Source of the DNA: Candidatus Lindowbacteria bacterium RIFCSPLOWO2_12_FULL_62_27
Lineage (GTDB): Bacteria > Lindowbacteria > 2-12-FULL-62-27
Direction: 5' to 3'
Assembly (NCBI GenBank): GCA_001784175.1
Contig: MFPR01000028.1
Span: forward strand, 263,614-327,613
DNA length: 64,000 bases
In this document: positions 1 to 53,265 of the stretch, one piece after another
Layout: each line of letters begins with the position of its first letter
Position numbering within the stretch: the stretch's first letter is position 1
Notes under the pieces: model-generated
Seen by the model: only the letters and a program-made list of their open reading frames with translations
Told to the model about the DNA's origin: nothing
Database searches by the model: none
Made by a program: the position numbers and the translations under genes

Positions 1-3000
1 AACCGAACCGGTTTCCTGAACAATCAAGGCAATAACTTTGACTATGGAAGGAACTGGTGGGGAACAACCGATGAGCTGAGAATAAGAACGTTAATTACTG
101 ATACGTCGACCGGTATCAAACTAAGCCCCTATAGATTGGGCATTGTCGACACGACATCCGGCGCCGACACGACGGCGCCGCTGCCGCCGGTGAATGTTTC
201 CGTCACCGCCGATTCGACCGGCCAAATCGCGTTGTCGTGGACGATTCCGACCGTGAATGAGGAAACAAACGGCGGCGCGGTCGGATACAGCGGCGCAAAA
301 ATCTATCGCCTGACGAACACGGCCGACACGAACAACTGGGGTAATACGGCCAACCTCGTCTGGACCGCCGGCTCCAGCGCCACCTCTTGGACCGACACCA
401 CGACGCTGGCGGGCAACACCTATTACTATCGCCTCACGTCGATCGACGGCAACGGCTTCGTCAACCAGTCGTTCTTTACGGACACCAAATGGGCCACCGC
501 CACGCGCACGGTCTGGTACGTGAACGACACGTACTCATCCGCGACCGACTCATTCACGTACATCGCAGGCTCCGACACAGGCTCCGCCGACGGCTCGCCG
601 TCCAAGCCGTACCGGAGCGTCGCGAAGGTGATGCAGTTCGCGAAGTCGTACGACACGATCTATGTAGATGCTGGCCTCTACGCTGATACGTATGTCGTCG
701 TGTCGGGTACAGAAAAGGCTGCGTTTAAGATTGACACGGACTATCTGACGCTCATCGGGAAGGACTCGAGCTCCGCAGTGATTGATCCGCCCGGATCTCT
801 TAGCGGCTCAGGTTCCACGAGACTAATCGGTATCTATGCTTCGAATCGAAAGGGTGTGGCTATACACAACATCGGAATCGTCGGAGCCGATTACGGCATA
901 TATTTCGACAATGTTGATTCGTCGTCAATTGTCTTGGATAGTGTGTCAAATAGTGTCGTCGGGTTTTTCTTGGCTAATGGTTCAGATTCAAATGTGTTTC
1001 AAGATAATTTCACTTCCTTCAACAATCAGGGCCATGAGGGAGGTGATGAAAAGGCCGGCTATGGTTATTATCTCGATGCCTCCGGCAAAAATATGCTTTT
1101 GAACAATGTTTCGAATAGTGATTCGGGTGGAATTGCGATTAGGTTTAGTTCCGGTAATTATCTTTACAAGAATAGAATTTCGAGAAATACCACCGGGTCA
1201 GGAATAGGCCTTGCTGGGTCCGCCAGTAATGTTCTAAGTGAAAATACCATCGAATCAAAGTCTGTGGGCATAAGTATGGGTGTCGGGTATGCCGGAAATT
1301 ATCGTGCTTGTTCCAGTAACATTATTGTAAGAAACAAATTGATCAATAATGACACATGTGGAATCTACTTAGTAGTCATTGATGTTGATAGTAATGCGTT
1401 TGTCCAAAATGAAATCTCAGGTGCCGAAACGGGTATTCTTATTTCTAATTATTATAGTGGCACGCCTCCTCCCAGCAATATTTTCATAAAAAATAACATA
1501 TTCGCATCAAAGGTTAGGGATGTCTATAGTACAGCACCTTCTGCGCAGTACTTCTCAAGAAACTGGTGGGGAACAACTGACGAAGTGACAATAAAATCTA
1601 AATTTCTTGATACCATTTCAACATTCATTCCCTACCGAATCGGTCTCGTTGATACAAGTATTGGCGCCGACACCACCGCTCCCGGCCTACCGGCGAGCGT
1701 GACGCTCGACACGGCCTCTCCCGGTTTGATCAAACTCACATGGACCATCCCGACCGTGGATGAGGAGACGAACGGGGGGTCGGTTGGGTATGCCGGGGCG
1801 AAGATTTATCGTCTCAAAGGCATTCCGGACACGACGCAATGGGCGAACAGCGCTCTCCTAGTGTGGACCGCCGGCTCTTCGGACACGACGTGGACGGACA
1901 CGGGGGCGAAGGAGGACACGACGTATTATTACCGGCTGACGTCGTTTGATTCGGCGACGTACGTGAACCAGTCGTTTTTTACGGACACGAAGTGGGCGAA
2001 ACCGACGAGCGCCGGGGTTGTGCGGTTTTTTGAGGACACCGGATTTACCGACGAGGTCGACACGTATCTGACGCGCGATTACATTCTGATCGAGGTGCGG
2101 GACACGGACGAGAACCGCAACTCGAGCGCGAGCGAGACCGTGACGGTCAAGGTCTACGTGGGGAACGGGACGACCGAGGGGGACTCGGCAGGGCTGGTGC
2201 TGGACACGGAGACGATTCTCTTGACCGAAGTCGGTCTTGCGTCGGGCATCTTCCAGTGTTCGCCTGTCATTGTGACCGACTCCAAGGTTCCGGCGTCGGG
2301 TGACGGAATCATCAGTTGGGGCCGCGGGGACACGGTCTACGTCATTTACACCGACTCGAACGACGCCAACGACACGGCCATCGACACCGCGCTGGCGATC
2401 GAGATCGCGTCCACATCCCGCGTTCAATTCTACGACGACACCGCCTTCACCGACGACGTCGACACCTACAAGACGCGTGATGTTTTGTACGTGGCGGTCT
2501 TCGACACGGACGAGAACCGCAACCCCCAGAGAAAAGATACGGTTTCTGTCACCGTTTACGTCGGCCTCAACACCTCCGGACTCATCACCGATACCGAGGT
2601 GATCACGCTGACCGAAAGCACAGAAACGAGCGGCATATTCCTGCTGTCGGCCGGGATCAACCTGACCGATACCGCCGCGACGACGTCGAACAACGGGTTT
2701 CTGACCTGGGCCACGAGCGACACCCTGCAGGTGGACTACCTCGACGTGACCGGCGGCACGACCGACAGCGCCTCCGACACGGCGCTGCTGGTCGACACCG
2801 ACGTCCAGTCCTATTCCGGGCCCGTCTGGTATGTGAACGACACCTCGACGACCGGCGATATTTACACCTCGGCCATCGGCTACGACACCTCCGCCGGCGT
2901 CGGGTCGGCCTCCGCGCCGTTCAGGTCCGTCTCGATGGCCCTCCGGTCAGCCAAATCCGGCGACACGATTTACATCGACGCCGGCCGGTACGGCGATACG

Positions 3001-6000
3001 GGATATGACACCTTCGCCAATTACACCGAAACGGCCGCCTTCCGGATCGACACCGACTACCTCACGATCATCGGGAAAGACTCAAACGCGACGGTGATCG
3101 ATCCTCCGGGATCGAACACGACCGTCGGTCTCTATGCCATCTATGCTGACAGCCAAATCGGACTTGTCATCAAGAACCTCGGAGTGACGGGCGCCTACGA
3201 CGGTATTCATTTCGTGAACGTCGATCTGTCAACGATCACGGGCGACAGCGCAAGCTCAAACAGCAGCAGCAGCGCCGGCGCGGGCGTCTATCTTCTGAAC
3301 GGCTGCGACACCAACACGGTGAGCAACAACACGGCCAATTCGAATTTCATCGGCATCCTGGTGGATACTGGTTCGAACAATACGATCAGCAACAACACGA
3401 CGACTTCGAATTCATGGGCCGGCATCCTTCTGGCCTGGGGTTCGAACAACACAGTGGGCAACAATACCGCCAATTCCACGACCCAGGGACACGGCATCGA
3501 TCTGGAATACACCTCCAGCAACCGGGTGAGCAACAACACGGCCAAATGGAATTCGTGGGACGGCATCGTTCTGAACGGGAGTTCGAACAATGTTGTTGTT
3601 CAAAACATGCTGGATTCCAACGCGAAGTACCAGATCTATATCGACGGACCATCCTCATCGGATACGGTTGCCAAGAACAACATCCGGACATCGCCGACGA
3701 ATCCCGACAGCGGGGTGTTCAACGGGACCAACAACGCCCTTGATTTCACCCGCAACTGGTGGGACACGACGGACGAGGTGCGGATCGGCAAGATGATTTA
3801 CGACACGGCGACGGCAGTGAAAATCACGTGGCGCCCGTATCGCCTCGGCCCGGTCGATACCGCATCCGGCGCCGACACGACCGCGCCCGGGCTGGTCGCG
3901 GGCGTGTCGCTCGATACGAGTGTCGGAAACATCGTCAAGCTCACGTGGACGATCCCGACCGTCAACGAGGAGACGAACGGGGGGACGTTCGCTTACAACG
4001 GCGCGCGGATTTACCGACTGCGCAACACGGTCGACACGAACCACTGGGGCAACCCGGCGAACCTCGCGTGGATCGCGGGCGAGTCGGACACGCAGTGGAG
4101 CGACACCGGCGTTGTGGGCGGCGAGACGTACTATTACCGCATCACGTCGCTCGACTCGGCGACATACGTCAACCAGTCGTTTTTCACCGACACCCAATTC
4201 GCGAAGGCCGATTCGGCCTACGCCGGGCCGAAGTGGTACGTGAACGATACATACTCGTCCTCGGCCGACTCGTTCACGTACGCGGGCGGGAATGACACGA
4301 GCTTGAGCGTGGGCGACGGCTCGACCTCAAAACCGTTCCGCAGTGTCGCCCGGGCCTTGCAGAAAGCCAAATCGGGCGACACGATCTACGTCGACGCCGG
4401 TCTCTACGCGGACACGTACGTGTGGGTGTCGAGCACGGAGACGGCGGCGTTCAAGATCGACACCGACTACATCACGGTCGTCGGCAAGGATTCGGCCGCC
4501 AGTGTGATCGACCCGCCGGGCGATTCGATGAACCGCCGGGTCTATGGCGTATACGCGACCGGCCGGGTGGGCCTGACGATCAAAAACCTCGGCGTGACAG
4601 GCGCCGGATACGGGATCAACTGGCTCAACGTCGACTCCTCGACCCTCTCCGGCGACGGCGTCAGTTCCTGCGGCTTTTACGGCATCGCGCTCGGAAGCGC
4701 GTCCGACTCCAACACCATCAGCGGCAACCTCACGTATTGGAACGACAGTTACGGCATTTATCTGGAATCTAACCGGAACAACTCCGTGACCAACAACCTA
4801 TCGAGCTGGAACGGCATCCAGGGCATTTTCATGAACTTGAGTTACTCCAACACCGTCTGCAGCAACACCCTGAAGGCCAACTTCTTTTCCGGCATCTACC
4901 TCGAATCCTGCACCGGCAACAGCATCTGCGGCAACACGGCGGACTCGAACAACAACTACGGCATCGCGCTGACGAACGCGTCCAAGTCGAACCAGATTTA
5001 CAGCAACCTCGTCACGTCGAACGGCGAGTACGGCATCAAGATCGATTCAAGCGCCGATAACCTCGTGCGGAACAACCTCGTGCGATCCAATTTCCGCGTC
5101 GGCGTGCAGATTCTGAACTCCGACACGAACACGGTCACGCTGAACGACATCGCCGGCAACGACACCGGCGTGCGCCTGCAGGGCGTCTCGCGGAACAACC
5201 TGATCACAAAAAATAATTTCCTGTCCCGCATCAGCGCCAACGTCTGGAACGCGTCGGCGCAGACCGACACGATCACCTTCAACTGGTGGGGCACGACGGC
5301 GGAGGATTCGATCACGGCGCTGATCGCCGACACCGCGTCCAACGCGTTCCGGCCCTACCGCATCGGCGTCATCGACACGACGCCGGGCGCCGACTCGACC
5401 GCGCCCGCGCCGCCGGTGGGGGTGGCGCTGGACACGAACACATACGCGGGCCGGATCGTGGTCACGTGGACGATCCCGACGGTGAACGAGGAGACGAACG
5501 GGGGGACGGTGAGCTGGGCGGGGGCGTATGTGTATAGGACGAATAAGACAGATACGACCCACTGGGCAAACACAGCAAATCGAGTATGGATCTCGTCGTC
5601 GACGGCGACGTCGTGGACCGACACCGGCGTCACGGCAGGCGAGACGTACTATTACCGCCTGACGTCGATCGACGGCTCCGCCGTGCCCAACCAATCGTTT
5701 TTCACCGACACCAAGTGGGCGATCCCGCAGGCCGAAACGCAGGGCCGCAAGTGGTACGTGAACGACACGTACTCGTCGTCGACCGACTCGTTCACGTACG
5801 CCGCGGGATCGGACACCAGTTACGGTGACGGCACCGTCAACAAGCCGTACCGGTCGGTCGCGAAGGCGCTGCAGGGGGCGAAGTCGGGGGATACGATCTA
5901 CGTGGACGCAGGCCTGTACGCGGACACGTACGTGCTCGTGTCGTCGTCCGAAACGGCTGCGTTCAAGATCGACACCGATTACATCACGATCATCGGCAAG

Positions 6001-9000
6001 GACTCGAACGCTACCGTGTTCGACCCGCCGGGGGCGAAAACGGTGGAGGGTCTGTTCGGCATCTACGCCGACACCCAGACGGGTCTGGTCATCCGTGACC
6101 TCGGGGTGACCGGGGCGCTGGCCGGCATCGCGTTTTTAAATGTCGACTCCTCGACGATTTCCGGCGACAGCCTGTGTTCCAATGACGTGGGCGTCTATTT
6201 CGCGAGCGGTTCGGACAGCAACACCGTGACCGGCGTGACGGCCCGTTACAATGGGATCGGGATATATCTCGATTCAAGCTCGTCCAACGCCATAAGGAAC
6301 AACATGGCTGATTCGAATTCAAATTTCGGCGTCTATCTCAAGACCAGCGCGTCCAACACGATCAGCGGCAACACGGCCGATTCGAACTCCGTCGCCGGCA
6401 TCTATCTGAATTCTTCCTGGAACAACACGCTGGAGACCAACGCCGCCCGGTTCAATGCTTCCGCCGGCATCTATCTTGCGTCATCCCGGAGCAACACGCT
6501 CTACGGCAACGCGGCCGACTCGAACGCGACCTACGGTTTTTATTTCACCGCGTCGGACACCAACACCCTGTCGGGCAACGCGGCCCATTCGAATTCGGGC
6601 TTCGGCATCCGGCTGGTGTCGAGTTCCTACAACGTTGTGACCCGCAACGCCACTGATTCGAACGCAACCGCCGGGCTATCCGTCGACACGGGAACCTACA
6701 ACACCGTGTCCGGCAACCGGTTCAGCGGCCGTTCGGCAAGCAACCAGTCCGGCATCCTGCTGGCCGGTTCGGATTCGAACGTGATCGCGCAGAACGACGT
6801 GAGCGCCAACGCCTACGGGGTTCTGCTCAACAGAACGTCCAGCGGCAATACGATCACGCGCAACAATTTCACCGGGAACACCACTTACCATGCGCTCAAT
6901 CAGGCCGGCCTGTCGCAGGCCTTCACGCGCAACTGGTGGGACACGACGGACGAGGTCACGATTTCGCAGAAATTCGCCGACACCGCCTCGGCTTTCATCC
7001 CGTACCGGCTGGGCAAGGTCGACACGACCGCCGGCGCCGACACCACCGCCCCCGGCCTGCCCGCGAGCGTGTCGGTCTCCTGCACGAGCGCCGGCTGTTC
7101 GGTGACGTGGACGATCCCGACTGTGAATGAGGAGACGAACGGGGGGACGGTGGGGTATGCGGGGGCGATCATCTATAGGACCAATACGACAGATACGTCG
7201 AATTGGGCGAATAAAGTCAACCTCGTGTGGACCGCGTCGTCGTCCGCGACGTCGTGGATCGACACGCAGGTGACGGCCGGCAACACGTACTATTACCGGC
7301 TGACCTCGTTCGATTCGCCGTCGGCGACCAGCCCGTTTTTCAATCAGTCGTTTTTCACCGACACGAAATCCGGAACTGTGTCCGCGACGGACACGACTGC
7401 GCGCGCGTGGTACGTGAACGACACGTACTCGTCTTCGACCGACTCGTTCACGTACGCGGCTGGCGCGGACACGAGCTACGGCGACGGCTCCACCTCCAAA
7501 CCCTACCGCAGCGTTGCGAAGGCGCTCCAATCGGTCAAGTCCGGTGATACGATCTTTGTGGACGCCGGGTTGTATACGGACACATACGTCATGACCTACT
7601 TGGGAGAGACGGCGGCTTTCAATATTGACACCGACTACATTTCAATCATCGGCAAGGACTCCAACTCAACGGTCATCGATCCGCCGGGGTCCGCATCGGT
7701 CTTGTTCAATAAAGTGACCCACGGAATTTTCGCCGACAGCCAAGCAGGGCTTTTGATCAAGAATCTGGGAGTCACCGGCGCGTATGACGGCATCCATTTC
7801 GAAAACGTCGACTCCTCGATCATCACCGGTGACAGCGTCAGCGGCACCGTCAACAGCGCCGTGACGCTGCAATACGGATGCGAAGGCAACACGGTCAGTT
7901 CCAATCTGATTGTTTCGAACAGCGGCGCAGGAATCTGGCTCTATACATTGAGTTCAGGAAATCTTGTGGACAACAACAGGGTTGATTCCAATCTCGGGGG
8001 TATCGCGCTGGATAGCAGTTCGAGTAATATTGTGAGTAATAACACTGTCAAATCCAACACCACAGGCATTGACCTGAAAAAATCTTCCAATCAAAATATA
8101 CTTCGGACCAACGTGATCAGTTCAAATCTGGCGGACGGCATTTCCCTGTCATCGAGTTCCGATAACTTCTTGGTTCAGAATACGCTGGATTCAAACGCCC
8201 AGTATCAGATTTACATCACGGGTTCCTCATCTTCCGATACCGTACTGAAGAACAACATCCGTACATCGACCCGCAATGCGGATAGCGGCGTGTTCAACAG
8301 CAGCGGCAACACGTTCGATTTCACCCGCAATTGGTGGGACACGACAGACGAGGTCAGGATTTCGAAGATGATCTATGACACGGGCGCGTCGACCAACATC
8401 AAGTTCAGTCCGTATCGTTTGGGCGCTGTCGACACGACCGCCGGCGCCGACAGCACGGCGCCCGGCCTGCCTGCGAACGTGACGGTTTCGTGCACGAGCG
8501 CCGGCTGTTCGATGAGCTGGACGATCCCGACCGTGAATGAGGAGACGAACGGCGGGTCGGTGGGATATGCGGGGGCGAAAATTTACCGATTGAAGAATAC
8601 AGTCGACACGACGAACTGGGGGAACCCCGCCAATCTCGTCTGGACCGCGTCGTCCTCCGCGACGTCATGGGTTGACACGCAGGTCACGGCCGGCAACACA
8701 TACTATTACCGGCTGACGTCCTTTGACGCCGCGACGTTCATGAACCAATCCTTCTTCACCGACACCAAATCCTCGACCGTCGTGTCGGGCGGCGTGACGG
8801 TCGACACCGTTACAGTCGTCAGCGGCAACCACCAGATCACGACGATCTCGTCGCGGCTGTCCTCGGCTCTCCGCGTGCGCCTGACCGATTCGACCGGCGC
8901 CGCGATCCCCTACGCGCGGGTGACGTTCGCGATCGCGTCGACGCCGTCGACGACCGGCGGGTATTTCCGCGACTCGTCCGCGCTCACGTCGAGCGATTCG

Positions 9001-10563
9001 GCTTGGACCGACTCCGACGGCTATGTTCAGGACACGTTCACGCTCGGAACGACGCGCGGCGTGTATCTGATCACGGCCACGTCCGATTCGAACACGTCCA
9101 AAAAGGCGCTGTTCTATGCCTACGCCGACGGCGTGGATATTACGGCGAGCAAGTGGAGGATGGTGGCGACGAACAAGACGGCCGCGACCACGTTTGGCAC
9201 GATCACGGCCGGGATGACGAGCCCGGTAGGATACGGCTGGAACGAGGCCGCCGGGGTGAGCGCCGGCGTTTCGGAATACTCGCAGCTTTCCAGCAGTTCG
9301 GCGATCGACACCGGGCGGTCGTACTGGGTGTACACCGCGTCGTCCGGCGGCTACGCGTACGTGTCCGGCTCGACGGCGTTGGACACCGTGCGCGTGGCGC
9401 TGACGGCCGGGTGGCACATGATCTCGTCCGGGCAGTATTTCTACGTGGACTGGGATTCGGGCGTGTGGTTCGACACGAACGGCGAGAAATATCTTCCGGC
9501 GAAGGCCGATTCGCTCGGGATCATCAAGAACACTTTGTTCTGGTACACCGGCTCCGGATACTACTGGGGTCCGGACCCGCTGACGGCGCAGGTATCGCAC
9601 GTGCAGATGAAACCGATGACGGGGTTCTGGCTCTACACGCCGGTTGCATGCACGATGTGGGTGGGTCCGTACCCGGCGAGCCCGGCGGAGACGTCGACGT
9701 ATATATTGCAGCAGGCGCCAAATTATAAATCTGAAGGGATTGTCCACGAAGGAGCACGAAGGGGCACGAAGGAATACGAAGGATCTGTCATGGCCGCGCA
9801 ATATGTGAACGGAGGAAGCGATGTTGACTGGGTGGTAAGATTGACGGCGGCCGCGGGGGATCAGGTGGATTTTCAGAATTATGTCGGCGTCAAGCCCACG
9901 GCGCAGGAGGCGGCGCGCTCCGCGGTGTTTGATCCGCCGGCCGCGGCTGGGAATTTTGTGGCGGTTGGAGTGAGAGCGGGAGAGGGAGCAGGAGGAGGGT
10001 GGTTGGCGGCGTCGTACGCTGAGCCCGTGACAACCGTGAAAACATGGGAGGTCAGTCTGGCGACGGACATGGACTCGCCCGTCGTGCTGTCGTGGGAGAA
10101 TGTCGCGAGCATTCCGCCGCAGTACGACGCGTACCTGATCGGCGCCCCGACCGGTCCGGCGAATTTGCGGCAGGTTTCATCGCTGGTATTGCAATCCGCA
10201 ATCCACAATCCGCAATCCGCAATCACATTGGCGGTAGGGTTGCCCGAATACTTGGCCGCGTTTCTGGCCGGCAACCTCGACCGGACGCAGACCTTCGCGT
10301 ACCCGAACCCCGGCCCGGACGGGGCGACGGGGAACGTGACGTTCAAGTACAATCTGCAGGCGGCGCAGGACATCACGGTGCGGATCTTCGACGTGGGCGG
10401 CAGACTCGTGCGGGAGTTGCGGCAAAGCGGCGTCCCGGGGTCCAATCTGCTCCCGTGGGATACGGCCAACCGATACGGGCAGAAACTCGGGTCGGGAGTC
10501 TACATTTACATCATTCAGTCCGGGGGAGAAAAACTGGTGGACAAGGTGGCGATCGTGAGATGA
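1..10563 (+). CDS. giant modular secreted surface protein (5'-partial): tandem Fn3-like + right-handed parallel beta-helix (NosD/pectate-lyase-like) modules, Ig-like inserts, C-terminal T9SS/Por sorting domain
   Basis: ORF track gives 136..10563 (3475 aa, TTG) but the frame is open from nt 1 and residues 1-135 (NFDYGRNWWGTTDEL..SPYRLGIVD) match the end of the internal repeat, so the gene continues 5' of the window. At least 6 copies of WTIPTVNEETNGG..YYYRLTS (Fn3-like), DTIYVDAGLYADTYV beta-helix start and RNWWDTTDEV cap. Last ~85 aa (YPNPGPDG..ITVRIFDVGGRLV..GVYIYIIQSG..) match the T9SS C-terminal domain. Confidence 0.85.
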   Translation, partial: NRTGFLNNQGNNFDYGRNWWGTTDELRIRTLITDTSTGIKLSPYRLGIVDTTSGADTTAPLPPVNVSVTADSTGQIALSWTIPTVNEETNGGAVGYSGAKIYRLTNTADTNNWGNTANLVWTAGSSATSWTDTTTLAGNTYYYRLTSIDGNGFVNQSFFTDTKWATATRTVWYVNDTYSSATDSFTYIAGSDTGSADGSPSKPYRSVAKVMQFAKSYDTIYVDAGLYADTYVVVSGTEKAAFKIDTDYLTLIGKDSSSAVIDPPGSLSGSGSTRLIGIYASNRKGVAIHNIGIVGADYGIYFDNVDSSSIVLDSVSNSVVGFFLANGSDSNVFQDNFTSFNNQGHEGGDEKAGYGYYLDASGKNMLLNNVSNSDSGGIAIRFSSGNYLYKNRISRNTTGSGIGLAGSASNVLSENTIESKSVGISMGVGYAGNYRACSSNIIVRNKLINNDTCGIYLVVIDVDSNAFVQNEISGAETGILISNYYSGTPPPSNIFIKNNIFASKVRDVYSTAPSAQYFSRNWWGTTDEVTIKSKFLDTISTFIPYRIGLVDTSIGADTTAPGLPASVTLDTASPGLIKLTWTIPTVDEETNGGSVGYAGAKIYRLKGIPDTTQWANSALLVWTAGSSDTTWTDTGAKEDTTYYYRLTSFDSATYVNQSFFTDTKWAKPTSAGVVRFFEDTGFTDEVDTYLTRDYILIEVRDTDENRNSSASETVTVKVYVGNGTTEGDSAGLVLDTETILLTEVGLASGIFQCSPVIVTDSKVPASGDGIISWGRGDTVYVIYTDSNDANDTAIDTALAIEIASTSRVQFYDDTAFTDDVDTYKTRDVLYVAVFDTDENRNPQRKDTVSVTVYVGLNTSGLITDTEVITLTESTETSGIFLLSAGINLTDTAATTSNNGFLTWATSDTLQVDYLDVTGGTTDSASDTALLVDTDVQSYSGPVWYVNDTSTTGDIYTSAIGYDTSAGVGSASAPFRSVSMALRSAKSGDTIYIDAGRYGDTGYDTFANYTETAAFRIDTDYLTIIGKDSNATVIDPPGSNTTVGLYAIYADSQIGLVIKNLGVTGAYDGIHFVNVDLSTITGDSASSNSSSSAGAGVYLLNGCDTNTVSNNTANSNFIGILVDTGSNNTISNNTTTSNSWAGILLAWGSNNTVGNNTANSTTQGHGIDLEYTSSNRVSNNTAKWNSWDGIVLNGSSNNVVVQNMLDSNAKYQIYIDGPSSSDTVAKNNIRTSPTNPDSGVFNGTNNALDFTRNWWDTTDEVRIGKMIYDTATAVKITWRPYRLGPVDTASGADTTAPGLVAGVSLDTSVGNIVKLTWTIPTVNEETNGGTFAYNGARIYRLRNTVDTNHWGNPANLAWIAGESDTQWSDTGVVGGETYYYRITSLDSATYVNQSFFTDTQFAKADSAYAGPKWYVNDTYSSSADSFTYAGGNDTSLSVGDGSTSKPFRSVARALQKAKSGDTIYVDAGLYADTYVWVSSTETAAFKIDTDYITVVGKDSAASVIDPPGDSMNRRVYGVYATGRVGLTIKNLGVTGAGYGINWLNVDSSTLSGDGVSSCGFYGIALGSASDSNTISGNLTYWNDSYGIYLESNRNNSVTNNLSSWNGIQGIFMNLSYSNTVCSNTLKANFFSGIYLESCTGNSICGNTADSNNNYGIALTNASKSNQIYSNLVTSNGEYGIKIDSSADNLVRNNLVRSNFRVGVQILNSDTNTVTLNDIAGNDTGVRLQGVSRNNLITKNNFLSRISANVWNASAQTDTITFNWWGTTAEDSITALIADTASNAFRPYRIGVIDTTPGADSTAPAPPVGVALDTNTYAGRIVVTWTIPTVNEETNGGTVSWAGAYVYRTNKTDTTHWANTANRVWISSSTATSWTDTGVTAGETYYYRLTSIDGSAVPNQSFFTDTKWAIPQAETQGRKWYVNDTYSSSTDSFTYAAGSDTSYGDGTVNKPYRSVAKALQGAKSGDTIYVDAGLYADTYVLVSSSETAAFKIDTDYITIIGKDSNATVFDPPGAKTVEGLFGIYADTQTGLVIRDLGVTGALAGIAFLNVDSSTISGDSLCSNDVGVYFASGSDSNTVTGVTARYNGIGIYLDSSSSNAIRNNMADSNSNFGVYLKTSASNTISGNTADSNSVAGIYLNSSWNNTLETNAARFNASAGIYLASSRSNTLYGNAADSNATYGFYFTASDTNTLSGNAAHSNSGFGIRLVSSSYNVVTRNATDSNATAGLSVDTGTYNTVSGNRFSGRSASNQSGILLAGSDSNVIAQNDVSANAYGVLLNRTSSGNTITRNNFTGNTTYHALNQAGLSQAFTRNWWDTTDEVTISQKFADTASAFIPYRLGKVDTTAGADTTAPGLPASVSVSCTSAGCSVTWTIPTVNEETNGGTVGYAGAIIYRTNTTDTSNWANKVNLVWTASSSATSWIDTQVTAGNTYYYRLTSFDSPSATSPFFNQSFFTDTKSGTVSATDTTARAWYVNDTYSSSTDSFTYAAGADTSYGDGSTSKPYRSVAKALQSVKSGDTIFVDAGLYTDTYVMTYLGETAAFNIDTDYISIIGKDSNSTVIDPPGSASVLFNKVTHGIFADSQAGLLIKNLGVTGAYDGIHFENVDSSIITGDSVSGTVNSAVTLQYGCEGNTVSSNLIVSNSGAGIWLYTLSSGNLVDNNRVDSNLGGIALDSSSSNIVSNNTVKSNTTGIDLKKSSNQNILRTNVISSNLADGISLSSSSDNFLVQNTLDSNAQYQIYITGSSSSDTVLKNNIRTSTRNADSGVFNSSGNTFDFTRNWWDTTDEVRISKMIYDTGASTNIKFSPYRLGAVDTTAGADSTAPGLPANVTVSCTSAGCSMSWTIPTVNEETNGGSVGYAGAKIYRLKNTVDTTNWGNPANLVWTASSSATSWVDTQVTAGNTYYYRLTSFDAATFMNQSFFTDTKSSTVVSGGVTVDTVTVVSGNHQITTISSRLSSALRVRLTDSTGAAIPYARVTFAIASTPSTTGGYFRDSSALTSSDSAWTDSDGYVQDTFTLGTTRGVYLITATSDSNTSKKALFYAYADGVDITASKWRMVATNKTAATTFGTITAGMTSPVGYGWNEAAGVSAGVSEYSQLSSSSAIDTGRSYWVYTASSGGYAYVSGSTALDTVRVALTAGWHMISSGQYFYVDWDSGVWFDTNGEKYLPAKADSLGIIKNTLFWYTGSGYYWGPDPLTAQVSHVQMKPMTGFWLYTPVACTMWVGPYPASPAETSTYILQQAPNYKSEGIVHEGARRGTKEYEGSVMAAQYVNGGSDVDWVVRLTAAAGDQVDFQNYVGVKPTAQEAARSAVFDPPAAAGNFVAVGVRAGEGAGGGWLAASYAEPVTTVKTWEVSLATDMDSPVVLSWENVASIPPQYDAYLIGAPTGPANLRQVSSLVLQSAIHNPQSAITLAVGLPEYLAAFLAGNLDRTQTFAYPNPGPDGATGNVTFKYNLQAAQDITVRIFDVGGRLVRELRQSGVPGSNLLPWDTANRYGQKLGSGVYIYIIQSGGEKLVDKVAIVR
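150..8760. repeat. tandem ~1.4-2.2 kb coding modules with stretches of near-identical nucleotide sequence (module boundaries near 150, 1650, 3850, 5370, 7020, 8430)
   Basis: e.g. tggacgatcccgacNgtgaaYgaggagacgaacggggg recurs at ~3946, 5466, 7108, 8518. aagtggtacgtgaacgacacgtactcgtc recurs at ~4230, 5748. 7051-7110 vs 8461-8520 ~90% identical. Confidence 0.8.
9745..9782. repeat. four direct CACGAAGG/TACGAAGG repeats at 10-bp phase, lying in-frame inside the giant ORF in an AT-rich intergenic-looking segment
   Basis: ccacgaagg agcacgaagg ggcacgaagg aatacgaagg read directly; same motif family as elements at 11068 and 12643. Confidence 0.8.
10192..10226. repeat. heptanucleotide tandem repeat (CAATCCG)x5 (3 perfect, 2 variant units) inside the giant ORF just upstream of the CTD-coding part
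   Basis: caatccg caatcca caatccg caatccg caatcac read directly; unit length not a multiple of 3. Confidence 0.85.
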
Positions 10564-11024
10564 CCTCTGATATCCGCGAAGAATCGGAAAGCGTGTCCGA
10601 GTCGGAGGTGGCGGACAGCACAGGCATGGATGACGCGCGGCTGGTGAAGAAACCTCTTTTATATAACGAAGAGGTCTTCGAAATTATAGGGGCTGCGATG
10701 GATGTCCATCGCGAGCTCAAGTCCGGATTTAAAGAAGAGGTCTACCAGGAAGCTCTGGAGATAGAAATGACCGACCGCGGCATCCCGCACGAGCCGCATA
10801 AGCTATTGCGGATTCGATATAAGAGTCGAACCTTGAAAAAAGAATATGCGCCCGATTTGGTCTGCCACGGCAAGATCATCGTTGAAATTAAGGCGCTCAG
10901 CAGGCTCAGCGGTACTGAAGAATCGCAGGTGTTGAATTATCTCAAGGTCTCAGGTCTAAGAGTCGGGTTGCTTGTGAACTTTGGCAGCATTGGGAGACTG
11001 GAATGGAAACGGTACATCAATTGA
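10560..11024 (+). CDS. GxxExxY family protein (PD-(D/E)xK-like)
   Basis: C-terminal 130 aa EEVFEIIGAAMDVHRELKSGFKEEVYQEALEIEM..YAPDLVCHGKIIVEIKA match the GxxExxY family. ORF-track start 10044 lies inside the giant gene. ATG at 10560 overlaps the giant-gene TGA (ATGA); alternative start ATG 10626. Confidence 0.7.
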   Translation: MTSDIREESESVSESEVADSTGMDDARLVKKPLLYNEEVFEIIGAAMDVHRELKSGFKEEVYQEALEIEMTDRGIPHEPHKLLRIRYKSRTLKKEYAPDLVCHGKIIVEIKALSRLSGTEESQVLNYLKVSGLRVGLLVNFGSIGRLEWKRYIN

Positions 11025-11067
11025 TGGAAAAACAAGAAAAAGAGATTCTTGACGGGGAATTCGTTTA

Positions 11068-11151
11068 TCCACGAAGGAGCACGAAGGAGCACGAAGGGGC
11101 AAAGGGATCAGGAGAGATGCTTCGTGTCAGCTTCGTGTCAGCTTCGTGGAT
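11068..11151. repeat. palindromic repeat-array element: 3x CACGAAGG (10-bp phase) - 22-nt spacer - 3x CTTCGTG (11-bp phase)
   Basis: tccacgaaggagcacgaaggagcacgaagg...cttcgtgtcagcttcgtgtcagcttcgtgga read directly; between GxxExxY gene and next gene. Confidence 0.85.
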
Positions 11152-12595
11152 AAAACGGTTTTCTGTTTGCCTGTCGGTTCAATTGGCTCTATGTTCGTAC
11201 CCCGCTTTTTCTCAGATGAGCCAGGAGGAACTCCGGCGCGAGCGGCAGGAGACGTATGAGGAGCTGCGGCGGACGCAGGATGTGTCCGGCGGGTCCAATT
11301 TCATCTGGCGAGGGCTGTCGAACGCGACCGGGTGGGAGGTCGATTATGGCGGGTGGTACGCGCCGCAGTACACCGGCGGGGACAACGGGACCGACCGGGA
11401 CAAGGGGACGCCCGACACGCTGGAGCACACGTGGGAGCATGACTGGCGGTTTTTCCTGCGGATCACGAGCGCCACGAAGAAGACCAATTTTTACGCGCGG
11501 CTCAAGACCACGATGACCTACAACAAGGCCAACACCCCCGCCGTCGACGCGAACGACTGGGCGCTGCCGACGTTCGACATGTTCTACATGGATTTCGTCC
11601 GGACCGGCCGGACCTTCAAGCACACGTGGACGTTCGGTCGGCAGTACGCGCAGGTCGAGCGCGGGATCGGGTTCGGCATGGTCGCGGACGGCCTCCGGTA
11701 CGAGATGGCGTCGCGGCGGAACGAGATGCAGATCTTTTTCATGCGCCAGCAGCCCGGGGACGACAACGTGGACGCGACCGCCGCCGGCTGGAGCACAGGG
11801 CGGACGAAGCGGTGGTTTTACGGGCTTGAGTGGAAGTGGAAGCTTCATCCAAAATTCCTCAACACGGGCCTGTCGGTGCTCGGCAACATCGACCAGAACT
11901 TCGAGCACGCCGACGGCGGCGGCCAGCGGCACCAGCTTGACTCGATCTATTACGGGCTGGGCCTTTCGGGGAACCTGACGGGGCGGATGAGTTACTGGAC
12001 GCAATATATTATGGAGAGCGGCAAGACCTACGAGAGCGGGACCTCGCGGAAGATCAATCTCGACGCCGATGCGCTGGACGCGGGGCTCCGGTATTTTTTC
12101 CCGACCGCGCTTGCGCCGACGCTGTACCTCGAATACGCCGCCGGCAGCGGCGACGGCGACGCTGCGGTCGGGACGTCGACCACGAACGGCAGCACAGCCG
12201 GCAAGGACGAGCGGTTCATCTCGTTCGGCGGGCTCTCGCTCGGTTATGCGATGGCGCCGCAGCTGATCAATCTGAAGGTGTGGAAATTCGGCGGGAGCGT
12301 CAAGCCGTTCGGCTGGAGCCGCAGCCGGCTGTGGCAGGAGCTGGTGGTGCAGCCGACGTATTACACATACAGCAAAGACAAGGCGGGTACCGCGGCGTTG
12401 CCGGTGCCGGTGCCGGACGTTGTGGCCACCAATCCGTCGAAGAAGCTGGGCAGCGAGCTCGACCTGACGGTTGCGTGGCGATTGGCGGGCGATCTCAAGT
12501 ACCAGTTCAAGTGGGGCCGGTTTCTGCCGGGCGCCGCGTATCCGACGCGGTCGGCGGAATCGTACGTGCGGCTGAAACTCTCGTTGGATCTGTGA
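11117..12595 (+). CDS. putative outer-membrane beta-barrel/porin-like protein (alginate-export-like?), W/Y/G-rich
   Basis: ORF 11003..12595. ATG at 11003 would translate the repeat element; ATG 11117 (GGAGAG just upstream) gives MLRVSFVSASWIKRFSVCLSVQLALCSYPAFSQ, a signal-peptide-like N-terminus. Composition with alternating aromatic/Gly residues typical of OM barrels; no specific family recognised. Confidence 0.45.
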   Translation: MLRVSFVSASWIKRFSVCLSVQLALCSYPAFSQMSQEELRRERQETYEELRRTQDVSGGSNFIWRGLSNATGWEVDYGGWYAPQYTGGDNGTDRDKGTPDTLEHTWEHDWRFFLRITSATKKTNFYARLKTTMTYNKANTPAVDANDWALPTFDMFYMDFVRTGRTFKHTWTFGRQYAQVERGIGFGMVADGLRYEMASRRNEMQIFFMRQQPGDDNVDATAAGWSTGRTKRWFYGLEWKWKLHPKFLNTGLSVLGNIDQNFEHADGGGQRHQLDSIYYGLGLSGNLTGRMSYWTQYIMESGKTYESGTSRKINLDADALDAGLRYFFPTALAPTLYLEYAAGSGDGDAAVGTSTTNGSTAGKDERFISFGGLSLGYAMAPQLINLKVWKFGGSVKPFGWSRSRLWQELVVQPTYYTYSKDKAGTAALPVPVPDVVATNPSKKLGSELDLTVAWRLAGDLKYQFKWGRFLPGAAYPTRSAESYVRLKLSLDL

Positions 12596-12642
12596 GGAGA
12601 ATATGAAGCGCAAGTGGTCAGAGCATGTGAAAAAATTATTTG

Positions 12643-12737
12643 TCCACGAAGGGACACGAAGGAACACGAAGAACCCCTTTTATAATTTATTGAATATCTT
12701 GGTACCCTTCGTGTCAGCTTCGTGTCCCTTCGTGGAT
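12643..12737. repeat. second palindromic repeat-array element: 3x CACGAAGG - 34-nt AT-rich spacer - 3x CTTCGTG
   Basis: tccacgaagggacacgaaggaacacgaag..ttttataatttattgaatatc..cttcgtgtcagcttcgtgtcccttcgtgga read directly. Confidence 0.85.
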
Positions 12738-12743
12738 AAGCGG

Positions 12744-13232
12744 ATGTGTCTAATTGTTTTTGCGTTCTGTTTCATGGCGCCCGCCGCGCATGCGCAATCG
12801 TCCATGGACTTTTACCGCGAACTTGCGCGCAAGCCTCAGGCGACGATTGGGGATGCCGTGCATGCCGTGGCGCGGGCCGAGGGGTATGCCGGGCCGGTAA
12901 ATTTGTGGGGGGAACTCGTGTGGCTGCACAAAGAGCGCGGGGTGACGTTCCGGCGGGACGTCGCGGCCCTCGAAAATGTGGCGCTCACGAAAGGCAACGC
13001 CGCGCACATGCTGATGAGCGCGCTGGGCGTGAAGGGCTGGGTGATGCAGCGGATTTTCAAGGGCAGCCAGCGATACGCGCTGCGCGAAGCCGTCTATCAG
13101 AAACTTCTGCCGGCCGAGAGCACCGTGCACCAGAAGATGTCGGGCAACGAGCTGCTCGGGTTTCTGTCGCGCGTGGTGGAGCACACAGAACGGCGCGGGA
13201 TCGCCGGGAGTTTGTTGAGGGACAGGGAGTGA
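12744..13232 (+). CDS. hypothetical secreted protein
   Basis: ORF 12603..13232. In-frame ATG 12744 directly after the repeat element gives classic signal peptide MCLIVFAFCFMAPAAHAQ. Stop TGA overlaps next start (TGATG). Confidence 0.55.
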   Translation: MCLIVFAFCFMAPAAHAQSSMDFYRELARKPQATIGDAVHAVARAEGYAGPVNLWGELVWLHKERGVTFRRDVAALENVALTKGNAAHMLMSALGVKGWVMQRIFKGSQRYALREAVYQKLLPAESTVHQKMSGNELLGFLSRVVEHTERRGIAGSLLRDRE

Positions 13233-15262: not shown

Positions 15263-18038
15263 GGGTTTTTAACCCCCCATCGGTTATTTGCACGGCCGCT
15301 GCGTGTTCGCGGACGAGCGCGGACGAGTGCGACCGCAGAGACGCGACGAGGTCGCGGCGGGCCGGGTCCGGGTTGTCCTTCCACACGTAGAGGATGGCCG
15401 AGATCATGTATTCGTAGGGCCGGGCGACGAGGTCCTCGAGGGTGCGGCCCACGTCAAAGTGGGCGTCCGGGACGTGCTTCAAAAACTCCCTGCGGGCCTC
15501 CACCATCGCGCCGTTCAGGACGGGCAGGAGGATGCCGGTCCAGGGTTTGAGGTCCCCCATATTTTCGAGCGCCTCCAGCGCGAGGGCGCGTTCGGCCGGC
15601 GCGCCGTGGACGGCGTTCCGGTAGACGCGCTGGAGGGTGAGCCGGTCGGAGAGAAATCCGAGCTCGATAAACACGAGCTTGCACGCGTCCCGCGCCTCCT
15701 GGTCGAACACGTAGTTCGTCACGTCGCGCGCGCGGTCGGTCCGGCAGAGTCCGAGAAGATGTTCGCGGAGGGTTTCGATTCGGATCCAGTGTTCGATCTC
15801 GCGTTTCAATATTCGGACCGCCTCCTCCGCCGGGAGCCTGCCGTCGATGCGCTGGGCGAGGGACACGACGCAGAGGTCGCGGATCGCAGGCTCGTCGGAA
15901 TGGATCTCCTGGAGCAGGAGGTCGGTCGGGTCCCATTTCGTATTTCGCGCGATGGCGGCGAGAAACCGGAGTTTGACGCGCCGGCGGCTCACCTCCTGCC
16001 GGTAGGCCAAAAGGATTGTGGTTCGGAGATGCTCGCCGCACGAGGCGAAATACCGCTGCACGTGTGGAAAGAGAATGTCGTCGCGGAGGGCGTCGACCAG
16101 CGCCGGGATGACGCGTTCGTCCTTGAAGGCCGTGAGGGAGCGGACGGCCGCCCGCGAGATTTTCGGATTGGCGTGTCGCGCCATCTCCAGGAGCGTGGGT
16201 AGAAAAGATTTGATGCGCAGCCGCCCGAGGATGGACGCGAGGAGTTCCAGCTCGCGGGGGTCCTCGCTTTTGGCCCAGCGCTTGAGCATCTCGGCAGTGG
16301 AAAGGATGCCGTCGAACCCGCCGATTTCCGCCTCGGTTTCGACCGCCTCCGCGACCACGCCGATGTCGGGATGCATGCGCAGAATTTCGAGCGCCATGAT
16401 CTGTTCCTCCGACCCGAGCCTCCGGAACCCCGCGAGCGCCTCGCGGACCACATCCGGGTGCGGATCGCCCAGGCGGTCCTCCAAGTGCGTCAGCATGTCG
16501 CGTCCGCCGATCTGCCCGATGGCGCGGCAGGCCATGCGCCGGACTTCGGGGTTGGCGTGTTCGAGGAGCGGCACACAGAGAGCAGCGGCGGGTTCGTATT
16601 TGATGAAAAGGAAATACTCGATCGCAAACGAGATGTCCTCCTGGTTGGCGGACTTGAGCCGCTGTTCCATTTCGCGGACCGTCGCCTCCGCGTTTTCGAT
16701 CGACAGCGCCGACAGGACGGGCACGCCGGCCTGCGGCGCGGCCTGGAGGTTGGAGACGACGGCCTTGAGATAATTCTTGCGGAGCAGGATCGTCGCGACG
16801 AACCAGACGGCGGCGAGTCCGAAGTTGCAAGCCGCGATCTGGGCCGGCTCCAGTTTCAATTCGACCAGCAGCAGCAAGGCCGCGCCGGCCAGACCCATCG
16901 AAAAGGGTTTGATGTAGCCTTCGACAAACGCCCGCGCCCGTCCGCGCTGAGCGGGCGGGATGGGGTTGAAGAGAAGCTGGTAGGCGACGTCGGTGGCCGT
17001 GTAGAGCAGCACATGATCGCCGAACTTGGTGACGCAGGCCGACGCGAACCCGAAGGAGACGATCATGCTGCCGATGGAGAAGAGGAGAAATGCGGGATGC
17101 AGCGTCATCGCCCCGGTCACACCGAGCTTGCGGATCGCCAGGGGCGTGAGGAATATCTGGAAGAGGAGGCAGCACGCGCCGGCCCAGCTTCGGAAAATTC
17201 CGAGGAAGGACGTCAGGGCGTCCTTGTCGGTCATGGCCACGCCGTTGACCTCCTTCGTGAAATTCGCGCGCGCGACTTGGCTGAACTGGTAGTCGATCAG
17301 GGTGAAGACGAGCCAGAGCGCAAGAATGAGGACGACCATGTTGACGAGGAGCGGCGTGCGCCGGACGTTCCGGAAGCCTTCGAGGAACTGCTGCCACTGG
17401 CTGAGCTTGGGCGCCTTGCGGGCCGCCTTGCCCGGCGGCGCCTTGGGGCGGTACCGCGCGAGGGCCGCGACGACGAGGAGTCCGGCGCCGAGGAGTACGG
17501 CCCACGCGATGAAGAGTTTTTCGGTGCCGAACGTTTTGACGAGCGGTTTGGCCACGAGCCCCGAGGTGATCATGCCGACGAGCCCGCCCATGCCGACGAG
17601 GGGAAAGATGCGTTTGGCCTGGACGGCGTCGAAGAAATCGGCGGCGAAGGTCCAGAACATCATGAGGGACATGAGCCACACCACCTGGATCAGCGAGTAG
17701 GTCGCCCAGTAAAACCACATCCATTCGGTCTTCAGGCCCAACACCACCGTGGCGAGCGTCGCGATGAACAGGATCAGGACCGCCCGCACGAATTTGAATC
17801 GGTCGAGCTTGTCGACAAACATCGCGTAGACCGCGGCTGACCCGATGGCGATGACGGCGTTGAGCATGTACGCGTAGGGCAGTGCGGCAAGGCCGACCTT
17901 GACGAGGAAGATCGAGTCGCGCGCGTTGCGTCCGAAGAAGATTCCGTTGACGAGGAGGAAGAAGAGGAGCGCGAGGAGGGACGTGCGCGCGAATTCGTCC
18001 TCGGAGAGTTTGAGTTTGGAGAGGAGGAAGGCTTTCAA
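15249..18038 (-). CDS. fusion protein: TLC (ATP/ADP translocase)-like/MFS-like transporter domain + C-terminal HEAT repeats
   Basis: 929 aa. N-terminus RTSLLALLFFLLVNGIFFGRNARDSIFLVKVG resembles the TLC-family signature, ~12 TM segments, C-terminal PBS-lyase/HEAT-like repeats (EVRRMACRAIGQIG.., PDVVREALAGFRRLG). Overlaps cNMP gene by 14 nt. Confidence 0.7.
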   Translation of the reverse strand: MKAFLLSKLKLSEDEFARTSLLALLFFLLVNGIFFGRNARDSIFLVKVGLAALPYAYMLNAVIAIGSAAVYAMFVDKLDRFKFVRAVLILFIATLATVVLGLKTEWMWFYWATYSLIQVVWLMSLMMFWTFAADFFDAVQAKRIFPLVGMGGLVGMITSGLVAKPLVKTFGTEKLFIAWAVLLGAGLLVVAALARYRPKAPPGKAARKAPKLSQWQQFLEGFRNVRRTPLLVNMVVLILALWLVFTLIDYQFSQVARANFTKEVNGVAMTDKDALTSFLGIFRSWAGACCLLFQIFLTPLAIRKLGVTGAMTLHPAFLLFSIGSMIVSFGFASACVTKFGDHVLLYTATDVAYQLLFNPIPPAQRGRARAFVEGYIKPFSMGLAGAALLLLVELKLEPAQIAACNFGLAAVWFVATILLRKNYLKAVVSNLQAAPQAGVPVLSALSIENAEATVREMEQRLKSANQEDISFAIEYFLFIKYEPAAALCVPLLEHANPEVRRMACRAIGQIGGRDMLTHLEDRLGDPHPDVVREALAGFRRLGSEEQIMALEILRMHPDIGVVAEAVETEAEIGGFDGILSTAEMLKRWAKSEDPRELELLASILGRLRIKSFLPTLLEMARHANPKISRAAVRSLTAFKDERVIPALVDALRDDILFPHVQRYFASCGEHLRTTILLAYRQEVSRRRVKLRFLAAIARNTKWDPTDLLLQEIHSDEPAIRDLCVVSLAQRIDGRLPAEEAVRILKREIEHWIRIETLREHLLGLCRTDRARDVTNYVFDQEARDACKLVFIELGFLSDRLTLQRVYRNAVHGAPAERALALEALENMGDLKPWTGILLPVLNGAMVEARREFLKHVPDAHFDVGRTLEDLVARPYEYMISAILYVWKDNPDPARRDLVASLRSHSSALVREHAAAVQITDGGLKTHADP

Positions 18039-53192: not shown

Positions 53193-53265
53193 GGTGGCTA
53201 TAGCTCAGCGGCAGAGCACCTGACTGTGGCTCAGGGGGTCGCGGGTTCAAATCCCGTTAGCCACC
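53193..53265 (+). tRNA. tRNA-His (anticodon GTG) with encoded G-1
   Basis: hand-folded cloverleaf: g-1 + gtggcta acceptor / tagccac + C73; anticodon loop ctGTGgc; T-loop ttcaaat; upstream TTGATC-N17-TAATAA promoter-like. Confidence 0.8.

Follow-up and report, generated by a model that had tools for sequence, protein, structure and literature searches.

Phased-word inverted arms around GxxExxY nuclease genes point to a probable, apparently undescribed selfish element in Lindowbacteria and other bacterial phyla

Among described genetic elements, the closest analogue of the one that we report here is the intervening sequence (IVS) of 23S ribosomal RNA (rRNA). In Coxiella, the IVS has terminal inverted repeats that pair as a 28-bp stem, which RNase III cuts; its loop contains an open reading frame (ORF), and GACAGAT is repeated three times just 5' of where this ORF starts (PMC4990558). 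In a 64,000-nucleotide stretch of contig MFPR01000028.1 (positions 263,614 to 327,613) from Candidatus Lindowbacteria bacterium RIFCSPLOWO2_12_FULL_62_27, hereafter referred to as the window, we analyzed three arrays of a phased CACGAAGG repeat and propose that they probably represent the arms, in inverted orientation, of a selfish cassette whose core is a GxxExxY (PDDEXK_3) nuclease gene, together with its gene-less hairpin and solo-arm derivatives. Shared with the IVSs of Coxiella burnetii and Leptospira are terminal inverted repeats that give a stem of ~28-35 bp around a small loop ORF, tandem heptamers directly 5' of the ORF start, a selfish character and a location inside a transcribed host unit (PMC4990558). 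The two nonetheless differ in site, gene and periodicity. Whereas IVSs occupy helix 25 or 45 of 23S rRNA, the arrays are found at mRNA operon junctions, in signal-peptide codons and in protein linkers, and in the window, where an Rfam scan detected no rRNA, the elements lie in a protein-coding operon. The IVS ORF encodes the four-helix-bundle protein S23p and the cassette ORF a PD-(D/E)XK nuclease, and cassette units recur at a 9-10-nt period in both arms.

Three further classes of palindromic repeat bear comparison. Repetitive extragenic palindromes (REPs) and their hairpin-forming doublets (REPINs) are short palindromic intergenic repeats present in many copies, and a single-copy, repeat-flanked gene encoding a REP-associated tyrosine transposase (RAYT) is thought to mobilize them. 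The arrays likewise are short palindromic repeats that fill short intergenic gaps and accompany a repeat-flanked gene, but they lack a GTAG head (their termini read TYATCCRC), their arms consist of three phased words, the flanked gene encodes a PDDEXK_3 nuclease and not an HUH Y1 transposase, and the same word family spans many phyla. Miniature inverted-repeat transposable elements (MITEs) have inverted ends and gene-less copies that far outnumber gene-carrying ones, and their insertion is polymorphic between related genomes. Inverted ends and more numerous gene-less copies recur here, whereas we saw neither a target-site duplication nor a DDE-transposase parent, array loops are unrelated between copies, and the ends are word arrays in place of one unique terminal inverted repeat. 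Finally, the palindromic elements of Rickettsia persist in frame in protein-coding genes, adding peptide segments. Such in-frame persistence is common to both, but the sequence families are unrelated, it is single arms or signal-peptide-proximal hairpins that are in frame here, and the arrays have a partner nuclease gene. In kind, the cassette is a palindromic selfish element related to IVSs, REPs and MITEs, and what is new are the phased word arrays in both arms and the PD-(D/E)XK partner found across phyla.

This selfish element is apparently undescribed. The literature that we searched contains no description of the arms, subscription journals and curators' notes falling outside its coverage so that prior notice is possible, and the repeat sequence itself, used as a literature query, returned primer matches only. 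An earlier sequence-only reading of this stretch had held that the repeat does not look like a simple terminator or REP and had matched it to no known element family. Our results agree. The arrays are not simple terminators, they match no Rfam family at the gathering score (the sole match in the window is a tRNA at 53194-53265), and their termini lack GTAG.

The three CACGAAGG arrays lie within 3 kb of the window and comprise two strong hairpins, (i) and (ii), and one solo arm, (iii) (Table 1). Reading the coordinates directly reproduced the sequence and phasing that the sequence-only reading had assigned to each. Array (iii) holds three CACGAAG units and one TACGAAG unit (9745-9781) at a period of exactly 10 nt and has the TTGTC/C terminus, with the slash marking the element boundary, in common with hairpin (ii). 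The closing flanks are TTATC and GATAA in hairpin (i), TTGTC and GATAA in hairpin (ii) and TTGTC in arm (iii), all of which fit the T-Y-A-T-C/C ... G/G-A-T-R-A pattern of the wider family. The exact CACGAAGG sequence occurs 11 times in the window versus 2.5 expected, a count reached by 0 of 100 shuffles, and the phased CACGAAGG pair occurs 8 times versus 0.39 expected; in a relaxed scan every copy fell inside 9745-12739 and none in the remaining 61 kb of the window. Both hairpins are also far more stable than shuffled controls, with folding energies for hairpins (i) and (ii) of -43.6 and -53.9 kcal/mol as RNA (z -6.7 and -9.5) and of -26.7 and -29.6 kcal/mol as DNA (z -8.0 and -9.1).

A gene that the sequence-only reading did not mention, encoding a 132-residue GxxExxY protein, ends shortly before hairpin (i), which starts 43 nt past its stop codon. 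At locus L042 a GxxExxY gene is precisely enclosed by a left and a right arm, and the gene is inside the hairpin at L042, L125 and L126. In a reverse test, an alignment of four GxxExxY proteins retrieved 569 relatives on metagenome contigs, 80 of which were kept with their flanks. Under a strict array criterion (an exact 5-mer, three times, in phase), arrays were present upstream of 54/77 GxxExxY loci and downstream of 55/74, versus 11/120 control windows. The recurring layout places about three 9-10-nt units immediately ahead of the start codon as a left arm, with a complementary right arm past the stop; the words include CACGAAA/G/T, CGCGAAT, CACAGAT, CGCAGAT and CACGGAA. Three units were counted in 125 of the 158 arms of gene-carrying cassettes, and the periods are 9-10 nt. 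In addition, database proteins that are 61-65% identical to the window's GxxExxY protein possess N-terminal extensions that are translated arms (IHEGHEGTRR, FFVLFVSFVD).

Among 56 cassettes with a defined word, 23 have the order left arm-gene-right arm (L-gene-R), six are L-gene-LR and two are -gene-LR, and most others add further arms. The L-gene-L'-loop-R order, L' being a second left arm, recurs at other loci, and L136 is a cassette of this type with the CACGAAG word. The two -gene-LR cassettes show no upstream arm. Judged in the same way, the window counts as -gene-LR, since the left arm before its gene (10572-10601) is decayed and weak and goes undetected. This candidate arm falls below the relaxed-scan threshold and is weak when taken alone; it ends ~20 nt before the GxxExxY ATG, in the same placement as the left arms of L042, L126, L136 and most metagenomic cassettes. 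At three loci, TumE, DUF2442 and Zeta_toxin genes lie between same-word arrays beside GxxExxY cassettes (L145 519-1472, L157 506-1486 and L188 411-1511). Arms may therefore bracket other small genes, with the toxin-type cases too few to generalize.

To characterize the arms, we compared their words and spacers. Over 63 cassettes the word takes the form C-R-C-R-R-A-D, in which positions 1-3 were set by the search pattern and position 6 is A in 63/63, and both arms share the same word in 28/28 cassettes. Within an arm the words are identical, and the two spacers share 0.90 of 3 bases compared to 0.98 for random pairs, from which we infer that the units are not recent slippage copies and that the seven word positions are under separate constraint. 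Between arms, 2.23 of 3 outer-spacer positions and 3.8 of 5 positions in the 5-nt flanks can pair, with the inner spacer near random (1.23 of 3), which indicates that pairing of the basal two-thirds of the stem is kept by covariation. Word distance rises with protein divergence (rho -0.35; reached by 0 of 500 permutations). Conserved words with free spacers are the pattern that would be expected of a multimeric sequence-specific binder, and the period of about one helical turn holds family-wide. The helical-turn phasing described in the sequence-only reading is upheld, and its multimeric binding protein is compatible with the word pattern. A regulatory role tied to secreted and type IX secretion system (T9SS) genes is not supported.

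The DnaA-box consensus is TTATCCACA. The element termini TTATCCACG (window 11065-11073) and CGTGGATAA (11145-11153) fit it at 8/9 positions, and cassettes with CACAGAT words, such as L142, yield a perfect TTATCCACA; both matches may be coincidence.

We further compared the window with orthologous loci, defined as contigs encoding homologues of its Alginate_exp-type protein. This protein, encoded downstream of hairpin (i), shows 100% identity to one from Candidatus Lindowbacteria bacterium RIFCSPLOWO2_12_FULL. The operon order is conserved and runs from a giant beta-helix/T9SS protein through Alginate_exp and a ~160-aa protein to FecR. In L120/L121 (69% identity) and L123/L124 (55%) the operon has no spacers, its junctions being a 4-nt ATGA overlap or an 11-nt gap, and neither a hairpin nor a GxxExxY gene is present. 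The hairpins and nuclease gene of the window are thus insertions, with the orthologues too divergent (55-69% protein identity) for exact nucleotide boundaries to be obtained against L121. Other relatives (L122, L125, L126 and L127) also have hairpins at this operon junction; their architecture is the same but their words differ (Table 1). The GxxExxY proteins of L125 and L126 are just 33% identical to that of the window versus 67-69% identity for the host protein, which favors independent insertions into a tolerant site. Same-word copies also cluster locally: in the window, CACGAAGG copies occupy the linker as well as both junctions, and L125 has its own word at both junctions. As for the relative L122, its array set consists of one left arm and two right arms, and its second operon junction (8380-8662) holds a different, 282-nt insert with inverted ends GGGAGTTTTGCAAAT and ATTTGCAAAACTCC.

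Table 1. Arrays and genes of the window, and hairpins at the orthologous operon junction of related contigs
Feature	Position	Strand	Details
Solo left arm (iii), with TTGTC flank	9740..9784	+	TTGTC, then three CACGAAG units and one TACGAAG unit, spaced by GAG, GGG and GAA
Possible decayed left arm of GxxExxY cassette	10572..10601	+	ATC, then CGCGAAG, AAT and CGGAAAG; one good and one partial unit
GxxExxY / PDDEXK_3 nuclease gene, 132 aa	10626..11024	+	Directly 5' of hairpin (i); TIGR04256, PF13366
Hairpin (i), left arm (L')	11065..11099	+	TTATC, then CACGAAG at 11070, 11080 and 11090; period 10 nt
Hairpin (i), loop	11100..11119	+	Contains AGGAGAG and the ATG (11117) opening the Alginate_exp ORF
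Hairpin (i), right arm	11120..11153	+	CTTCGTG at 11120, 11131 and 11142 (11-nt period), then GATAA
Host Alginate_exp-type outer-membrane gene	11117..12595	+	Start inside hairpin (i); orthologue start overlaps upstream stop (ATGA)
Small secreted-protein ORF	12603..13232	+	209 aa here, ~160 aa in orthologues; open through hairpin (ii)
Hairpin (ii), left arm	12640..12671	+	TTGTC, then CACGAAG at 12645, 12655 and 12665
Hairpin (ii), loop	12672..12706	+	AT-rich; unrelated to hairpin (i) loop
Hairpin (ii), right arm	12707..12739	+	CTTCGTG at 12707, 12718 and 12728 (periods 11 and 10), then GATAA
Junction hairpin of L126			Word CACGGAC; GxxExxY gene in loop
Junction hairpin of L125			Word CACACAC/CACAGAC; GxxExxY gene in loop; second, gene-less hairpin with the same word at next junction
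Junction hairpin of L122	L122 5900-7000		Word GGGAGAAAG; no GxxExxY gene
Junction hairpin of L127	L127 2280-2480		Word GGAGAAG; no GxxExxY gene

We next turned to gene-less copies in other genomes. A scan for three CACGAAG-N3 units, with one genome per species, returned at least 119 stretches; by our own arithmetic, the exact 21-base pattern would be expected ~0.3 times in the scanned collection. The figures that follow are for the matches listed, which span Acidobacteriota, Chloroflexota, Planctomycetota, Kiritimatiellota, Auribacterota, Aminicenantes and other phyla and comprise 79 hairpins and 156 solo arms. Gene-less hairpins typically comprise 3+3 units and enclose a loop with a median length of 21 nt. 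Of 586 steps between units, 506 measure 10 nt; the 3-nt spacers vary, and the number of units ranges from 2 to 6 with a sharp peak at three. The closing flanks T-Y-A-T-C/C ... G/G-A-T-R-A are conserved: 75 of the 79 hairpins have C at -1 and 73 have G at +1. Positions -5 to -1 are complementary to +1 to +5 (Y at -4 is matched by R at +4) and do not form direct repeats with them. The genes beside these arrays are unrelated to one another and come from many phyla. Under a crude ORF model, hairpin sides lie next to a gene start in 60 cases and next to a gene stop in 62, at median distances of 32 nt and 22 nt, respectively. The elements fill short intergenic gaps and gene starts are not preferred, and the bias toward starts that the sequence-only reading anticipated is absent.

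When long-loop pairs of CACGAAG arms were searched for other passenger genes, we found mostly ordinary host genes between separate elements. Viral contigs hold five arrays and three GxxExxY relatives, suggesting that phages are not the main carriers. Some loci in Chloroflexota and other groups (L040, L108, L111 and L085) display long higher-order tandem arrays of up to 16 arms in 8 kb, in which same-orientation arms with CACGAAG or CGCGGAG words alternate with a conserved ~22-nt spacer.

How the arrays lie in reading frames bears on their apparent connection to secreted proteins. The sequence-only reading had placed each array directly 5' of a coding start. Hairpins (i) and (ii) precede signal-peptide genes, but arm (iii) is not at a gene start; it is contained in frame in a continuous 3475-aa ORF (136..10563) encoding the giant beta-helix/T9SS protein and is translated VHEGARRGTKEYEG. 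The Met at 9790 is internal to this protein and is conserved in array-free orthologues, and the position of the arm corresponds to a protein linker that varies in length and sequence among orthologues. In signal peptides, which are later cleaved off, the elements separate the basic n-region from the hydrophobic core; hairpin (ii), in the small secreted-protein ORF, lies after the MKRKW start and ahead of this core. No stop codon interrupts the downstream ORFs where they cross the hairpins of the window (11003..12595 and 12603..13232), P0006, P0011 and L125. Right arms (CTTCGTG-like) encode an L/F/V/S/C-rich peptide and left arms an H/E/G/K/R-rich one, and the right arm of hairpin (i) translates to LRVSFVSASW, the N-terminal residues of the downstream ORF. 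A good GGAG Shine-Dalgarno sequence accompanies the ATG at 12603, which is in frame (141 nt) with the signal-peptide core past hairpin (ii); translation from it may run through the entire hairpin and add 47 aa to the N-terminus. As deposited, the Alginate_exp protein has 459 aa and begins past the signal peptide.

Two other short tandem repeats were noted in the window. At 10191-10224, in frame in the giant ORF, GCAATCC is repeated 4.9 times at a 7-nt period and is translated QSAIHNPQSAIT. This block has the same alignment length in orthologues, and L122 fills it with CTCTCCC-type words that are the complement of L122's own GGGAGAAAG arrays 410 nt upstream. At 15308-15331, near the end of a cNMP-binding-like ORF, the 10-nt repeat CGCGGACGAG occurs 2.4 times.

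The protein encoded between the arms belongs to a large family. The GxxExxY protein of the window scores 132.5 bits against TIGR04256 (cut-off 35) and 126.1 bits against PF13366 (cut-off 22; E 1e-36), and a single search returned >4,000 GxxExxY/PDDEXK_3 relatives at E<=1e-10. Residues G34, E37, Y40, D77, E87 and K89 are invariant in 53 homologues, leaving the D77...E87-x-K89 motif intact. An AlphaFold (AF2) model of the protein has a predicted local distance difference test (pLDDT) score of 92.6, and the closest solved folds to this model are Cas4 SSO0001 (E 1e-4) and then the lambda-exonuclease/RecE group; splicing endonucleases and a Holliday-junction resolvase match less well. No sequence relative in the PDB, no PADLOC defense model and no PHROG phage family matched the window's nuclease. 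In public annotation, this protein is labelled 'NADH:ubiquinone oxidoreductase'. A 2012 survey of the PD-(D/E)XK superfamily listed the function of PDDEXK_3 as unknown and reported multiple transfers (PMC3424549).

Taken together, these results lead us to favor, as the probable explanation, a selfish cassette in which inverted arms surround a GxxExxY nuclease gene and from which gene-less hairpins and solo arms derive. What carries this explanation is that the arms bracket the gene across lineages, that words are selected apart from spacers, that the arms are kept complementary, that the word tracks the protein and that the elements are absent from orthologous operons. A unit consists of a 7-nt word (CACGAAG here) and 2-3 free bases, with about three units of 9-10 nt in each arm. 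In the window, a putative decayed left arm precedes the nuclease gene, and hairpin (i) then supplies the second left arm, the loop and the right arm in turn, with hairpin (ii) and solo arm (iii) as putative gene-less copies near the cassette. The nuclease, probably as a multimer, could recognize the phased words from one face of the duplex or of an extruded hairpin and cut near the conserved TYATC/C boundary, so that the element is copied or moved. Gene-less hairpins may have been moved in trans or formed by deletion between the direct L and L' arrays, and copies would survive only where harm is small, namely at gene junctions, in the cleavable N-terminus of signal peptides and in flexible linkers. 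The association with signal peptides is best explained by this tolerance of insertions, the apparent link with secreted proteins reflecting survivorship at tolerant sites in an otherwise spacer-free operon.

Several observations weigh against this explanation. A GxxExxY gene is found within ~4 kb at just 1 of the 119 CACGAAG loci listed (L042), which implies that the gene is not obligatory in cis. No target-site duplication was seen, and the flanks instead extend the palindrome. The copies in the window are not fresh copies of one another, as their loops are unrelated. The covariation of word and protein could come from co-inheritance alone, and the presence/absence comparison covers only orthologues of 55-69% identity. 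The hairpins of L122 and L127 possess purine-only words outside the C-R-C-R-R-A-D form, with no GxxExxY gene in the DNA retrieved around the junction. Lastly, binding, cleavage and mobility are inferred for the nuclease and its element.

The main alternative, which we consider improbable and which is in any case compatible with a selfish cassette, is that the hairpins act as IVS-like RNA elements. Under this scenario, a ~30-bp stem in the operon transcript would be cut by RNase III, and the embedded ORF would be released or silenced and the stability or translation of the flanking genes set. This reading rests on the Coxiella 23S IVS, with its 28-bp stem, loop ORF and three copies of GACAGAT (PMC4990558), a word near the CRCAGAT class that is commonest here. 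The window hairpins both sit within an operon in sense orientation and have folding energies of -44 and -54 kcal/mol; the loop of hairpin (i) displays AGGAGAG-ATG, and across the family covarying outer spacers keep the arms paired. However, G-U-compatible mismatches in 49 stems show no bias toward the sense strand (78 sense, 72 antisense) and thus no sign of pairing selected only in mRNA. Moreover, pairing alone calls for neither one 7-nt word repeated unchanged in all units nor agreement between that word and the protein lineage, solo arms are common relative to hairpins (156 vs 79), and no Rfam family matches.

Less probable still is that the hairpins constitute an independent REP- or MITE-like family moved by some other factor, with GxxExxY as a free-standing, homing-type gene that invades hairpins as its target. 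Gene-less hairpins far outnumber gene-carrying ones in the CACGAAG class, the L-gene-L'-loop-R order resembles a gene with one arm set beside an intact hairpin, and L122 and L127 carry hairpins with other words and no GxxExxY gene, all of which would fit such an invader. Yet most cassettes have a left arm abutting the start codon and a right arm beyond the stop, and this placement, together with the word shared in 28/28 cassettes and the covariation of word and protein, implies that arms and gene have long been co-inherited as one unit. No other candidate mobilizing gene recurs in the loci that we examined.

The sequence-only reading itself interpreted the arrays as operators for a multimeric, response-regulator-like protein, or as a leader RNA, controlling secreted and T9SS genes. 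A 7-nt word in direct repeats at 10-11 nt does resemble the boxes of OmpR/PhoB-type operators, in which a word of ~7 nt is repeated at about one helical turn; two hairpins precede signal-peptide genes and several orthologous junctions also have arrays. In contrast to such operators, the arrays have no conserved position at promoters or orthologous target genes and their inverted pairs form hairpins. Orthologous operons function without any array, and the response-regulator gene of the neighborhood does not track the arrays, as it is present in the array-free L123/L124. Hairpin sides fall equally at starts and stops, the neighboring genes are unrelated and come from many phyla, arrays at orthologous junctions have different words, and the consistent partner is a PD-(D/E)XK nuclease gene between the arms. 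We regard this interpretation as largely refuted and very unlikely to be correct. Equally hard to credit is that the arrays are neutral, microsatellite-like slippage products forming palindromes by chance: short tandem units are present, including the GCAATCC repeat 400 nt away in the same ORF, and unit number varies from 2 to 6, but slippage would copy whole 10-nt units whereas spacers within an arm are no more alike than random beside identical words (0.90 vs 0.98 of 3 bases shared, on which a slippage-only origin was rejected), unit number is sharply peaked at three, closing flanks are conserved and the association with one gene family is consistent.

If the arms and their nuclease gene do form a selfish cassette, a wider proposal can be made, which we put forward tentatively. 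GxxExxY nucleases and phased-word arms would be an unrecognized, phylum-spanning kind of mobile DNA, in which a minimal Cas4/lambda-exonuclease-like PD-(D/E)XK enzyme recognizes three in-phase heptamers per arm on a hairpin or cruciform and mobilizes both itself and a larger population of gene-less hairpins, with the ORF-bearing 23S IVSs as one branch. The presence of the gene between word-specific inverted arms would give the large GxxExxY/PDDEXK_3 family a testable role as the engine of a selfish element, and the arms supply a candidate cognate DNA substrate for each lineage of GxxExxY protein. The same elements would account for very common annotation artefacts, in which HEGHEGTRR- or FVSFVSFV-type peptides are fused to ORFs and start codons are mis-set, and, via cleavable signal peptides and linkers, for the tolerance of insertions in tightly packed operons. 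They would also link mRNA-borne elements with the long-puzzling ORF-carrying intervening sequences of rRNA.

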